From Candidatus Falkowbacteria bacterium (GTDB lineage: Bacteria; Patescibacteriota; Patescibacteriia; XYB2-FULL-38-15): a stretch of 64,000 nucleotides of DNA. Below are positions 4,928 to 61,492 of the stretch, one piece after another; the stretch's first letter is position 1; every line of letters starts with the position of its first letter. Location: NCBI GenBank assembly GCA_037440105.1, contig JBBIUS010000002.1:2685-66684 (forward strand), read 5' to 3'. The translations under genes were made by a program, and so were the position numbers. The notes beneath the pieces are model-generated. The model was given only the letters and a program-made list of their open reading frames with translations, did no database searches and was not told where the DNA came from.

Positions 4928-5974
4928 TTGTTTAAAGGAAAAAAGCCGTATGTAGTACTTTATGCCAACCGTCGAGCTGGCTGGCGTCACGAAAGATGGT
5001 GGGCGCTTGATAAGTGGGCACTTGAGGAAGGCATCAAAACTTATGCTTTAACAGAAATTGAGGAAATTATACCGATCATTGAAAAATTCAGCGAACAGAT
5101 TCGGCTTTTGCTTGTTTACGGCGGGGACGGGACTTTGTTTCACATCACAAATAGTTTATTGAAACAAAGGAATTTTAAGAATTTGCCGATAATTGTTCCT
5201 GTTGGGGGAGGGACTATGAATCGGCTGAGGCAGTGGAGTCTTTGGATAGGAGAACCGATTCATAACGCAAAAATCGCTCTTGAACTTTTTGAAAGCAAGC
5301 GTTTGCCGCAGTTGCCGCTGCCTCTGCTTGAAGTGCGTTGGGGAGAAAATTGCTATCGAGCAATAACTTTTATGGCCGGCGTACCAGTTCGGGTAATGCA
5401 CAAGTATTCTAATTTCAAAACAACGCCTTTTATTGCCGGATTATTTGTTTTAGGTGCTCTTGCTTCGGGAATTTTAAGCTGGCCGAAATTTTTTACAGGC
5501 CTTTACGATCAAATTGACGTTGAAATAACGGTTGATGGCAAAAAGTTGCCGAACAATAAATATCTTGTTGTTATTAAAGATGTCCTAAGACAGTTGATCT
5601 TTTTCGCTGAGCCCTATCGAGGCGCTTGCTCTCCAGTTCAATCTTTCTCTTTAGCATACGCTATTGATTACAAAGAAACAGCACAGAAATTTTTAGGGAT
5701 TTTTTTTGGCCGAATTCCGCAAAATGATGAACGATATTTTAACCAACCGTCCGCAGAAATGAAAATTATGCCGCGCGAGGAAATTCCTTTCACACTTGAC
5801 GGCGAGTATTTTTCGGCAAAAAAAGACGAAATAATCACTATTTCGCCAGGTCCAATTGTGCCGGTGGCAGCAAATCCTATGGTTCACTTGCCATTTTTAA
5901 AGAGGCTTTTTGACCAAAAAGATCGTTTTAAGGAACTGCTAAGTTATGTATTGCCTACTAAAAAACAAGCATAG
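4928..5974 (+). CDS. DAG-kinase/YegS-like lipid kinase family protein
   Basis: 348 aa. TTG start preceded by AAGGAGG (4917-4923). GGDGT motif (LLLVYGGDGTLFH) of the diacylglycerol-kinase catalytic domain. Confidence 0.65.
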   Translation: MFKGKKPYVVLYANRRAGWRHERWWALDKWALEEGIKTYALTEIEEIIPIIEKFSEQIRLLLVYGGDGTLFHITNSLLKQRNFKNLPIIVPVGGGTMNRLRQWSLWIGEPIHNAKIALELFESKRLPQLPLPLLEVRWGENCYRAITFMAGVPVRVMHKYSNFKTTPFIAGLFVLGALASGILSWPKFFTGLYDQIDVEITVDGKKLPNNKYLVVIKDVLRQLIFFAEPYRGACSPVQSFSLAYAIDYKETAQKFLGIFFGRIPQNDERYFNQPSAEMKIMPREEIPFTLDGEYFSAKKDEIITISPGPIVPVAANPMVHLPFLKRLFDQKDRFKELLSYVLPTKKQA

Positions 5975-58934: not shown

Positions 58935-59120
58935 TTATCTTTGAAAGCTAGCTCTTCGCTTTTTATTGCATTCAAAGCAATAAACTGGTCGATCAGGAGA
59001 TGGTTTGAAAGGCAACTCCGTGATCGGCGTGCCACAGTCAGCGCATTTCAAATTCATGTCAGAGACATTGAACATTTGGCGCTGCGGTCTTGGGCCAAAA
59101 CCTTGATTGTTGAAGGCCAT
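58935..59120 (-). CDS. Small CxxC-x18-CxxC zinc-ribbon protein (61 aa)
   Basis: KCADCGTPITELPFKPSPDRPVYCFECNKK parallels the C-terminus of the TraD-like protein (KCSLCGKDTRVSFKPDGKRPVYCKECLRK). It has its own promoter (59244-59271) and terminator. No obvious SD. Confidence 0.6.
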   Translation of the reverse strand: MAFNNQGFGPRPQRQMFNVSDMNLKCADCGTPITELPFKPSPDRPVYCFECNKKRRASFQR

Positions 59121-59399: not shown

Positions 59400-59633
59400 T
59401 CAATTGTTAGTTTTTCGTGTTCTCAAAAGACTACAGGTTCCGCGCCAGATGATTTTGAAGACCTGTTTTATAAATTCCCAAAGCACCTGAAAAATTTTCT
59501 TCGTAACCCATGAAATCAACTCGTTGAACTTTCTTGCTAGCCATCGAATCAGCGGTCGAGATAGCGGAACGAATTCGTAAACAACGAAAAGTGCCAAAAG
59601 AAGGCTAATAATGCCAATCAAGAATCTTTCCAT
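59400..59633 (-). CDS. Small single-TM membrane protein (77 aa)
   Basis: AGGAGG lies 6 nt upstream of the ATG. N-terminal TM LIGIISLLLALFVVY. Confidence 0.55.
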   Translation of the reverse strand: MERFLIGIISLLLALFVVYEFVPLSRPLIRWLARKFNELISWVTKKIFQVLWEFIKQVFKIIWRGTCSLLRTRKTNN

Positions 59634-59658
59634 TTTAATCCTCCTATTTTGATTTTAA

Positions 59659-59686
59659 ATCATACTAAATTTTTAATTTTTGTCAA
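59659..59686 (-). promoter_or_regulatory. Promoter TTGACA-16-TATGAT on the minus strand
   Basis: The reverse complement of 59681-86 is TTGACA and of 59659-64 is TATGAT. It lies directly upstream of the 77-aa ORF. Confidence 0.5.
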
Positions 59687-59709
59687 GGACCACATTTAGA
59701 AAATAAAAA

Positions 59710-59935
59710 GGAGCGGCAAGGACTTGTGTCAATACCGCTCAGAGAGCAACCGCGCGAGGTGCCGAATCGGCACCCGTTGCGGATTATTTTCTGCCCTCGC
59801 TGTTTTTTCTTCCAGCGAGGTCAGCCGAGTGTGCCGGTTTACTGTCGAGCCTAGACTCGGGGCAGGCCCGCGAAAGGAGTCTCGCTCAGAGTGACAGGCA
59901 ACTTGAGCGAGAGCCGAGCCGGCTACGGCTTTCTA
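59710..59935. ncRNA. Candidate structured RNA (~225 nt, unknown class, strand unresolved)
   Basis: GC-rich island. Stems are 59711-16/59735-40, 59746-50/59776-80 enclosing 59758-59774 (7 bp), the three-way junction 59791-94/59862-65 with 59795-802/59813-20 and 59825-30/59855-60, and 59880-88/59904-12 (9 bp). All stems are perfect Watson-Crick. Confidence 0.4.
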
Positions 59936-59992
59936 TGATTAATTTTATGATCGCTAAAAAAAATATATCGAATTAAACTATTTTCGTCAAGA

Positions 59993-61492
59993 TTAACATT
60001 TCTTGGTAAAAAATATGCTGCATAAAATTATATAGCCAATTCCTAAGGGGTGATTTAAATATGGGCTAAAGAAATTTGTTGCTAAAAGAGCTAGAATTCC
60101 GAGGAGCAAACCAAGGGGGAGAAAGTCTCCTGCTTGCCATAAACGCCACCCAGAACGCCAAATTTTAGTGATTAAAAGGAGATAAACGACCAGCCCGGCC
60201 AAGCCGATTTTAAGCATAATGTCCAAATATCCCCATTCAAAGGCATAGGTAGTGAATTGCCCAGTTGGATTAAACTGCAAGGCGCGAGGATCGCTACTTT
60301 TGTAAGTGACAGTTGTGCCAAAGCCAGAGCCAATAACCGGGTGTTTTATAACTGCTTTGCCAAGCGGTGGAAGTAAATCCCAGCGGCTTCTGACCGCGGC
60401 TTCATTCAAATCAGTTAATCTTTCTTCTAACATTGAACCCCAAGAGATTTTGCTTGGCGTTGGGTACGGAAATTTGACGGTGATAAAAATCGCGGCGGCT
60501 GAGGTAACAAGTATGACTAGACCACAGAGTCCTATCTTTAAAATTTTTCTAAAGGGAAATTTTAGAAAGATTAAGAATATTAAAAGTGTCAAAAGCCCTA
60601 AAGCCAAGCCGACCCAGAAACTGCGGGAAAAGCTAATGAGAATAGATGAAAGACATCCAGTAACCAATAACGAGTAACGAGCAATAAGTACTTTGCTTTT
60701 GTCTTTTTGCCAGACCAAGAAGGCAATAAAAATAAATAGGGCGATTAACACATAAATTTGCGACTGAAAAAATATTCGGTAAAAACCGCTGCCCATCAAG
60801 GTTATCTCCCCTATTAAAAATTGCCGTAGCCACCGGTAAAGCGGATACATTGCCACTTCCAGATTGTGAGAAAAAATGTAAAGAAGAAAAAATGTTTTAA
60901 TGACAATAATAGTAACCGCGGCTGTTAAAATTTGCAGGATGTTTTCAATTTGCTCGCGCGATTTTACGACATCCACGATCGGAAAAATTAAACCAAAATA
61001 TAGCCAACCGTTGAAATCAAAAAATATATTTTGGAAAGAATTCCCGCGAATTAGCCCCCAAACAAAACCCCAGGCAATAAAGATAAACAGAATCCAATAG
61101 ATACGAGGAATCAGGAATTTAGAATCATGAATTATGGTTTTTGAATTTTGAATTTGTGATTTGGAATTTATTTGGAATTTAGAATTTGACATTTGAATTT
61201 TTCTGAACAACCATACACCAAACACAACTATGAAAAATGCTATGCGTAAAGAAATCGATACACTACCCGTGTCAAAGTAGAAAAGGTACCCTTTCGAACC
61301 AATAAACAATTCCGCTAGCAGAATATAAAGTCCGTATTCCAATTTTTCCAAAGTCAAAATCAGTGTCAGGGTCAAAATTACAAAAAAGGCCACTTTGTTA
61401 AAAAGCGGAAAAAGATATGCGACAAAAGACAAAATCAAAGCAAAAGAGATGAAAAGCAGTGATGTTTTAAAATATTTACCAAATAAATCCAT
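59993..61492 (-). CDS. O-antigen ligase/polymerase-like (Wzy-type) polytopic membrane protein
   Basis: 499 aa with >10 TM segments and a central loop region typical of O-antigen-ligase-like proteins. It contains ~13 in-frame heptamer words at 61107-61201. Confidence 0.65.
   Translation of the reverse strand: MDLFGKYFKTSLLFISFALILSFVAYLFPLFNKVAFFVILTLTLILTLEKLEYGLYILLAELFIGSKGYLFYFDTGSVSISLRIAFFIVVFGVWLFRKIQMSNSKFQINSKSQIQNSKTIIHDSKFLIPRIYWILFIFIAWGFVWGLIRGNSFQNIFFDFNGWLYFGLIFPIVDVVKSREQIENILQILTAAVTIIVIKTFFLLYIFSHNLEVAMYPLYRWLRQFLIGEITLMGSGFYRIFFQSQIYVLIALFIFIAFLVWQKDKSKVLIARYSLLVTGCLSSILISFSRSFWVGLALGLLTLLIFLIFLKFPFRKILKIGLCGLVILVTSAAAIFITVKFPYPTPSKISWGSMLEERLTDLNEAAVRSRWDLLPPLGKAVIKHPVIGSGFGTTVTYKSSDPRALQFNPTGQFTTYAFEWGYLDIMLKIGLAGLVVYLLLITKIWRSGWRLWQAGDFLPLGLLLGILALLATNFFSPYLNHPLGIGYIILCSIFFTKKC

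Follow-up and report, generated by a model that had tools for sequence, protein, structure and literature searches.

What is encoded in the GC-rich gap between an O-antigen-ligase-like gene and a small membrane-protein gene (smp) of a Candidatus Falkowbacteria genome? The gap lies in a 64,000-nt stretch of DNA (the window; GenBank assembly GCA_037440105.1, contig JBBIUS010000002.1, positions 2,685 to 66,684), and an initial annotation, made from the letters alone, had described it as a structured, GC-rich island of many helices at 59710-59935. This description was borne out. The GC content is 0.57 in 200-nt windows over 59700-59899, compared with 0.31-0.41 either side, in a genome (G000; 0.96 Mb, 85 contigs) that has 37% GC overall. 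The segment 59700-59945 folds with a minimum free energy of -107 kcal/mol as the plus strand and -99 kcal/mol as the minus strand, corresponding to z scores against dinucleotide shuffles of -4.4 and -4.5, and the fold covaries in nine other loci. We read the island, with a probability of roughly 70%, as an independent minus-strand gene for a compact, stably folded noncoding RNA (ncRNA), most likely accessory and trans-acting. We are confident of the predicted minus-strand gene and the fold of its RNA, and much less so of how the RNA would mature and what it would do.

The putative gene is delimited by signals on the minus strand. Its promoter begins directly past the stop codon of the O-antigen-ligase-like gene, transcription would start near 59955, and the intrinsic terminator is kept in all full-length homologues. 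The gene and the elements of its predicted fold, given in RNA sense (the minus strand of the window), are as follows.

59990-59962, minus strand: promoter of the RNA gene, TTGACG-17-TATATT (promoter scan, 10/12 matches)
59700..59955, minus strand: whole putative RNA gene, ~255 nt, from the predicted start to the end of the U-run
59929-59748, minus strand: conserved folded body of the RNA
59929-59913, minus strand: hairpin P1, GCCG/CGGC closing a conserved 9-nt loop, UAGCCGGCU (consensus UAGCYGGYU)
59912-59880, minus strand: hairpin P2, UCUCGCUCA/UGAGCGAGA, 9 bp with a 15-nt loop
59879-59870, minus strand: joiner J2/3, pyrimidine-rich, CUCCUUUCGC, with a CCUCC-like, anti-Shine-Dalgarno-like run
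59869-59847, minus strand: P3, GGGCCU/AGGCUC, 6 bp including one G.U, with an 11-nt loop, GCCCCGAGUCU
59846-59831, minus strand: joiner J3/4, GACAGUAAACCGGCAC
59860-59855 with 59830-59825, minus strand: pseudoknot PK3, CCGAGU in the P3 loop pairing with ACUCGG
59923-59919 with 59837-59833, minus strand: long-range pairing PK1, GCCGG in the P1 loop pairing with CCGGC in J3/4
59824-59791, minus strand: hairpin P4, CUG-A-CCUCGCUG/CAGCGAGG-G-CAG, variable in its apical part
59790-59786, minus strand: joiner J4/5
59785-59748, minus strand: P5, AAUCCGC/GCGGUU, enclosing the covarying hairpin P5a
59740-59700, minus strand: intrinsic terminator, hairpin GAGCGGUAUUGAC...GUCCUUGCCGCUC followed by CUUUUUAUUUU, conserved in homologues

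The 9-bp hairpin that the initial annotation had placed at 59880-59912 is P2, and the other stems that it listed are present. Where it saw a three-way junction (59791-59865), the comparison favors hairpin P4 beside an H-type pseudoknot, which is made up of P3 and the pairing of the P3 loop with 59825-59830. Inside the island the minus strand harbors no open reading frame (ORF) of 30 codons or more, and the plus strand contains only chance-looking frames of 42-56 codons.

Nine distinct sequences of this RNA and one strain variant are known, all from one order of the Candidate Phyla Radiation (CPR) or from matching metagenome contigs. BLAST among the relatives revealed the copies in genomes G009 and G001, the first covariance model that in G008, and a degenerate pattern scan of metagenomes that in contig L137. 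Further loci in NCBI, JGI, ENA and Logan assemblies were anchored on two neighbors, a zinc-ribbon protein and smp, and in these the core covariance model R2 located the RNA in L162 (99% identical to G008), L172, L176, L177/L178 and L179/L180. Model R2, which was built without G001, retrieved the G001 copy at 3e-18. It gave no match in 148 other genomes of the class and nothing at E<0.6 in G002, G003, G005, G006 and G007, five of the 10 genomes of the order; G004, scanned only with the other core model, R1, showed a 22-bit match to the terminator alone. A search of 596 Gb of genomes with an 18-nt core pattern returned 111 matches, of which 80 were fetched and 2 confirmed by the model; the rest look like chance. 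In G000 itself the RNA is present as a single copy.

The fold was assessed in a model-guided alignment of ten sequences (A11), in which the core structure including PK3 was scored, while the 5' domain was scored by a hand-made table. The covariance models used were the core models R1 and R2; MAFFT/RNAalifold on the full-length sequences misaligned the variable hairpins. In A11, 99.3% of the 307 cells of the core structure are paired, compared with 91.3% in column shuffles, and 13 of its 32 pairs have changed on both sides. Covariation in the core scores 0.386, whereas shuffled alignments score 0.218 and none of 500 reaches the observed value; this count is not a probability, because the sequences are few and closely related and the alignment was fitted to the model. 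When the 3' partners are slid by 1-3 columns, pairing falls to 24-46%. The strain pair G008/L162 behaves consistently, as all predicted helices survive its five differences. Three of these fall in loops or joiners, and the two within helices preserve or improve pairing: A-U becomes G.U in P0 (a helix of the relatives described below) and U.G becomes C-G in PK3.

The same alignment bears on the strand. Twenty-five core cells are G.U or U.G pairs and would become A.C mismatches were the RNA read from the plus strand, which places it on the minus strand. The initial annotation had found no G:U pairs with which to fix the strand; when read as minus, the window copy itself contains them in P3 and P5a. 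It had also taken a TTGTCA box as a hint of plus-strand transcription, but this hexamer is the -35 box of the downstream gene's promoter read on the opposite strand, and the promoter and terminator of the island lie on the minus strand. Nor does the island look like coding sequence. The homologues differ by insertions and deletions of 1, 2, 4, 5 and 8 nt, and thus no reading frame is conserved, and substitutions in the stems are compensatory rather than located at third codon positions. The retention of 57-61% GC and of dozens of compensatory base pairs in a 37% GC genome indicates that the fold is under selection.

Individual elements contribute unequally. The P1 stem covaries among the homologues (GCCG/CGGC, AGAG/CUCU, GAUG/CAUC and CCCG/CGGG), with 43 of 50 cells paired. 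In P2, all 77 cells are paired and both sides have changed at 8 of 10 positions. Four of the six P3 pairs have changed on both sides, with 96.7% of cells paired, and both P4, which is 100% paired, and P5a, whose loops are GAAA or AUU/GUU, have four of seven pairs changed on both sides. The pseudoknot PK3 is 100% paired and contains one covarying pair, its first, which is C-G in seven sequences, U-A in two and U.G in one. The PK1 consensus is GCYGG:CCRGC; here the window copy has a C-G pair where all others have U-A, a compensatory change, and L179 has a G.U at the neighboring position. P5 is invariant in ten of ten sequences, and its invariance, together with the GAAA tetraloops found on P5a in four homologues, suggests tertiary or protein contacts. 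Finally, all nine relatives contain an additional helix, P0, formed between the P2 loop and the 7-11 nt at the 5' end of the RNA (GGUGCG...); its 86 cells are all paired and three positions have changed on both sides. The window copy lacks P0.

The RNA belongs to no catalogued family. A search of the whole window with Rfam 15 (4227 models) gave no gathering-threshold match, and at E<=10 nothing relevant appeared in 59500-60100; overall, the searches of the window, the island and the relatives returned tRNAs and noise. The sole near-island match was to permuted tmRNA (10.3 bits, E=9.1). At E<=1, the four relatives searched showed no catalogued ncRNA family besides tRNA, and ARAGORN found no tRNA or tmRNA in the window. 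The initial annotation, which had noted strings shared with RNase P RNA and signal recognition particle (SRP) RNA, had nonetheless held the island to be neither, and that judgment stands. RNase P RNA (RF00010/RF00011) has no match on the island at E<=10 and a full-length copy elsewhere in the genome (contig C7, 15647-16114, 145.5 bits). The true tmRNA (RF00023) lies on contig C9 (164.8 bits), and the island has no tag frame. SRP RNA (RF00169/RF01854) is matched neither on the island at E<=10 nor anywhere in the genome, and the aligned homologues contain no domain IV hairpin. There is no match to 6S RNA (RF00013), and the predicted fold consists of local hairpins and pseudoknots, not of a rod with a central bubble. 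OLE, ROOL, GOLLD, raiA, LOOT and HEARO were likewise without a match on the island at E<=10 or in the four relatives at E<=1, and no intron or retron family was matched in either.

The missing SRP RNA extends beyond the island. In G000, whose assembly contains no runs of N, no SRP RNA, no Ffh M domain (PF02978) and, in six frames, no DTAGR motif were found, and the SRP54 GTPase domain (PF00448) gave only P-loop-level matches. Thus, no SRP RNA is expected in this genome. SRP RNA was found in 0 of 81 genomes of the class and the Ffh M domain in 0 of 81 sampled genomes of the phylum, and 61 genomes of the class showed no convincing SRP54 domain, while the controls for these searches were positive in 12-14 of 14 reference genomes. 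Either the Patescibacteria truly lack these components or the search is blind to them; no paper stating such an absence was found. On contig C25 of G000 (5751-5916, minus strand) there is a hairpin, AGG-CGG-GAAA-CCG-GAGCA, that resembles SRP domain IV, but no Rfam model recognizes it, and it probably arose by chance or belongs to a coding sequence.

How might the RNA be made? In nine of the ten loci a tRNA-shaped element directly abuts it; the window copy lacks this element. In the relatives it is located as follows.

L016:1347-1420, L137:4697-4770, L014:1796-1868, L013:1773-1877: tRNA-Glu-like element
L172:2784-2858, L176:2291-2368, L177:1925-1998, L179:2767-2840: tRNA-Glu-like element, further relatives

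The element scores 47.7-61.8 bits with the Rfam tRNA model, and ARAGORN labels it Glu(UUC), Gln(UUG) or, in L176 with its 9-nt loop, 'SeC'. Most copies have C33 rather than the universal U33, G001 has G33 and C37 with an anticodon read as Gln, and the G009 copy contains a 33-nt insertion. No CCA is encoded, while the real tRNA-Glu and tRNA-Gln genes of G000 encode theirs. In addition, an ordinary tRNA-Glu(UUC), 92-94% identical to the G000 copy, is present at another locus in five of five relatives tested, and neither G002 nor G006 has the module-type tRNA. Judged by its anticodon loop, which departs from U33 and a purine at position 37, the tRNA-shaped gene looks unfit for decoding. We read it as a redundant handle, in which the acceptor, D and T arms are conserved and the anticodon arm is free to change.

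The gene order in G008 and L177 points to a maturation pathway. In both, a TTGACA-17-TATATT promoter comes after the ligase terminator and heads a series made up of a small CxxC ORF, smp, the tRNA-shaped gene (20 nt past smp) and, immediately after, the RNA with its terminator. The next promoter occurs only beyond this terminator, so the unit from promoter to terminator is most simply one transcript. P0 starts 3-5 nt past the discriminator base of the tRNA-like element, with no promoter between. In the pathway that we propose, the ancestral transcript would run from the promoter through a possible CxxC ORF, the W/R-rich smp and the tRNA-Glu-like element to the RNA and terminator; tRNA 3'-end processing, by RNase Z or a similar enzyme, would create the 5' end of the RNA, and P0 would then sequester this processed end. 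In G000 the tRNA-like element and P0 would both have been lost, leaving an RNA that may be a primary transcript made straight from the operon promoter. In the window the promoter immediately ahead of the RNA resembles that of the operon in relatives and looks to be the same one, and smp lies behind the promoter downstream of the RNA. This arrangement fits a handle that serves in maturation and lies outside the functional core.

The setting of the gene is otherwise stable. The locus order is constant, with a glycosyltransferase gene, the O-antigen-ligase-like gene, a variable segment, the zinc-ribbon gene, fmt, def and priA. The two neighbors of the RNA in the window are the following.

59686-59659 and 59633-59400, minus strand: smp unit, promoter TTGACA-16-TATGAT and the gene for a 77-aa small membrane protein
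58935-59120, minus strand: 61-aa treble-clef zinc-ribbon protein (PF23477, CxxC-x17-CxxC)

Among the neighbors only Wzy_C and the treble-clef zinc finger are recognized by Pfam; smp and a further neighbor, protein X, are not. The zinc-ribbon protein is 61-70 aa long and 75-90% identical across the order, and it is represented by only 11 clusters in 5.8 billion proteins. Syntenic loci without the RNA occur in G002 (a one-contig genome), G006, L164, L166-type contigs and L181. The constant synteny, together with these RNA-free loci in sister genomes, indicates that the RNA is old at this locus yet dispensable.

One locus is rearranged. In L172 (GCA_964649075.1), whose left junction is backed by an independent Logan contig, L173, the RNA is split by an inversion of ~530 nt within L172:2859-3480. 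The breakpoints lie in the P2 loop, at a GGAUCC palindrome, and inside gene X. The tRNA-like element and the 5' part of the RNA (P0, P1, the 5' strand of P2 and the P0 partner) are on one strand, at 2859-2950, and the remainder, from the 3' strand of P2 through the terminator and on into the start of gene X, is inverted ~500 nt away. Little has been lost from the halves, and the two strands of P2 could still pair. In its split form the gene has either been inactivated recently or specifies an RNA in two pieces.

The position of the RNA upstream of other genes raises the question of whether it controls them in cis. As a riboswitch or attenuator, its folded body would be the aptamer and the terminator at 59740-59700 the expression platform for the downstream gene. 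In every genome a gene follows directly on the terminator, large aptamers typically have such a size and such pseudoknots, and the segment inverted in L172 took along the start of gene X as well as the core. Moreover, the invariant 5' strand of P5, AAUCCGC, could, as judged by eye, form a competing helix with the GCGG..UU that opens the terminator, a point that also counts against an independent gene. However, the genes downstream differ from locus to locus: in the window it is smp, in four genomes the gene of a 128-aa protein X, in two that of a ~200-aa PDZ-like protein and in one (L179) a gene on the opposite strand. Each of them lies behind a near-consensus promoter of the TTGACA-16/17-TAAAAT type, situated between the terminator and the gene. 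Since these downstream genes are unrelated and each has its own strong promoter, the RNA is probably not the leader of a neighboring gene, as the initial annotation had already concluded for smp from the promoter at 59686-59659. No Rfam riboswitch is matched either. The terminator, moreover, is reused. In relatives a near-identical sequence (GCGGCGUUGAC-GMAA-GUC..CGCCGC and a U-run) ends several unrelated genes at these positions.

L019:1501-1583, L017:1501-1571, L018:1486-1592, L016:2127-2213: reused terminator in relatives

In G000 the only copy of this type is the one that ends the RNA gene. Because the same sequence ends other genes in relatives, the terminator is of a general type and no part of a specialized switch, and its GCGG is not specific to the RNA. 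A cis-acting switch is, on balance, unlikely.

A second alternative makes the RNA the partner of smp, in a toxin-antitoxin-like or membrane-tethered pair in which it neutralizes, or is bound by, the W/R-rich tail of the protein. The smp proteins are 77-112 aa long, with one transmembrane helix and a basic tail rich in Trp and Arg (W..WRK.WR..RW). The family, to which the window gene at 59400-59633 and its homologues P0012-P0025 belong, has no Pfam match, is represented by only 14 clusters and always lies beside an O-antigen-ligase-like gene. Such a pairing would fit this protein architecture, the differences in presence and absence among close relatives and the finding that an smp homologue lies within a few hundred bases of the RNA in ten of ten loci, although the gene order differs in G000. 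Yet the co-occurrence may reflect shared ancestry of the syntenic locus, and smp homologues also exist without the RNA, in L174/L175/L166-type contigs and in L181. RNAduplex analyses of the RNA against the smp initiation regions produced long, loopy duplexes and revealed no conserved site, with four of five within the range of shuffles, and a pseudoknotted RNA of 250 nt is unlike the known type I antitoxins and lacks the tandem repeats of type III. We therefore regard a dedicated pairing with smp as improbable.

More probable than any such arrangement is the reading as an independent RNA gene, whose mature product would act in trans, as a protein- or ligand-binding scaffold and possibly as a catalyst. 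A universal housekeeping role is disfavored because the RNA is absent from sister genomes. An exposed CCUCC-like run, which could pair with Shine-Dalgarno sequences, is found in J2/3 and/or the P4 loop of every homologue, and these loops together with the adjacency of smp are the only leads on a partner. On the most speculative version of this reading, which we hold tentatively and as a minor possibility, the RNA would represent a new class, a triple-pseudoknotted ribozyme or ribonucleoprotein core freed from its tRNA-like handle and working with smp, for example held at the membrane, in a lineage where the search detected no SRP.

Several considerations weigh against the independent, trans-acting gene. 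The nine distinct sequences are close kin, so that the shuffle statistics overstate their independence. The support for PK1 amounts to one compensatory event and one wobble, and the lack of variation in P5 means that covariation neither supports nor refutes this helix. That a transcript exists, which strand it comes from, where it begins and ends and how it is released from the tRNA-like element are predictions from sequence. CCUCC-like runs occur in 35-55% of shuffled sequences and are thus a weak hint, not significant per sequence. Lastly, the possible pairing of the P5 5' strand with the start of the terminator is of the kind on which a riboswitch would rely.

The other explanations fare worse. 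The RNA could have come in with the extra tRNA-like gene as the remnant or accessory RNA of a mobile element, for example a guide or omega-type RNA, a retron ncRNA or a piece of an intron, as its patchy distribution and its position against a redundant tRNA-like gene might suggest. But the surroundings contain neither repeats nor genes for an integrase, transposase, TnpB/IscB or reverse transcriptase, the RNA is a single copy in G000 and always at the same chromosomal locus, and, besides the missing intron and retron families, none of six viral contigs that contain the core pattern matches the model. A mobile origin is hence very unlikely. Still harder to sustain is a plus-strand RNA, a small protein gene (such as the 56-codon plus-strand ORF at 59724-59894) or decaying foreign DNA, the last being the fallback of the initial annotation. 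The plus strand does fold equally well in isolation and does contain open frames of 42-56 codons, but the wobble cells and the minus-strand promoter and terminator contradict transcription from that strand, the indels of the homologues break any frame, and conserved synteny and compensatory changes exclude decayed or foreign DNA. A divergent universal RNA (SRP RNA, 6S RNA or RNase P RNA), to which the undetected SRP and 6S RNAs of G000 and short strings like those of Escherichia coli 4.5S and M1 RNA (an observation of the initial annotation) might point, is already effectively refuted by the RNase P RNA and tmRNA elsewhere in the genome, the SRP proteins that were not found, the absence of the RNA from five of the 10 genomes of the order, one of them a one-contig genome (with only a terminator-level match in G004), and a fold with neither a GNAR/AGCA domain-IV hairpin nor a 6S rod with central bubble.

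If the preferred reading of an independent RNA gene is right, the few complex RNAs of bacteria that lack a known function are joined by a family that is well defined and open to experiment. CPR genomes are tiny and have little spare room, and yet this lineage keeps a complex RNA of 250 nt. The RNA is short enough for probing, crystallography or cryo-electron microscopy, and nature supplies promoter-driven (the window), tRNA-like-fused and inversion-split variants, although its narrow distribution and dispensability limit its value. The tRNA-like fusion points to excision of a neighboring ncRNA by tRNA enzymes, a route known in eukaryotes and viruses and rarely described in bacteria.

Comparison with known systems reveals partial likenesses. 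SRP RNA and RNase P RNA are likewise GC-rich and a few hundred nucleotides long, with a few short strings in common. As in tmRNA, a tRNA-like module is combined with a pseudoknot-rich body; however, in the relatives studied here the module is a complete cloverleaf on the 5' side and is not formed by both ends of the molecule. Type I toxin-antitoxin loci also place the gene of a small single-pass membrane protein beside an ncRNA and are patchily distributed, but here the two are in same-strand tandem rather than antisense or divergent, the RNA is far larger and more structured, and smp, at 77-112 aa, is longer than typical toxins. The orphan ncRNAs raiA, OLE, ROOL, GOLLD and LOOT share with this RNA the GC-rich intergenic island, the covarying helices and the pseudoknots, and ROOL and GOLLD often adjoin tRNA genes. 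In contrast to OLE, ROOL and GOLLD, the RNA described here is much smaller (~250 nt), and it differs from the orphan ncRNAs in being confined to part of one CPR order, where it lies behind a degenerate tRNA-like element. A parallel in organization is provided by the dicistronic tRNA-ncRNA genes (plant tRNA-snoRNA, the tRNA-miRNA genes of murine gammaherpesvirus 68 and MALAT1-mascRNA), in which a tRNA shape also abuts an ncRNA and enzymes of tRNA processing mature the product. These examples are eukaryotic or viral, whereas the present one is bacterial; here cleavage by RNase P or RNase Z is predicted to set the end of the ncRNA, and the window copy, which lacks the tRNA-like part, would be driven by its own promoter.

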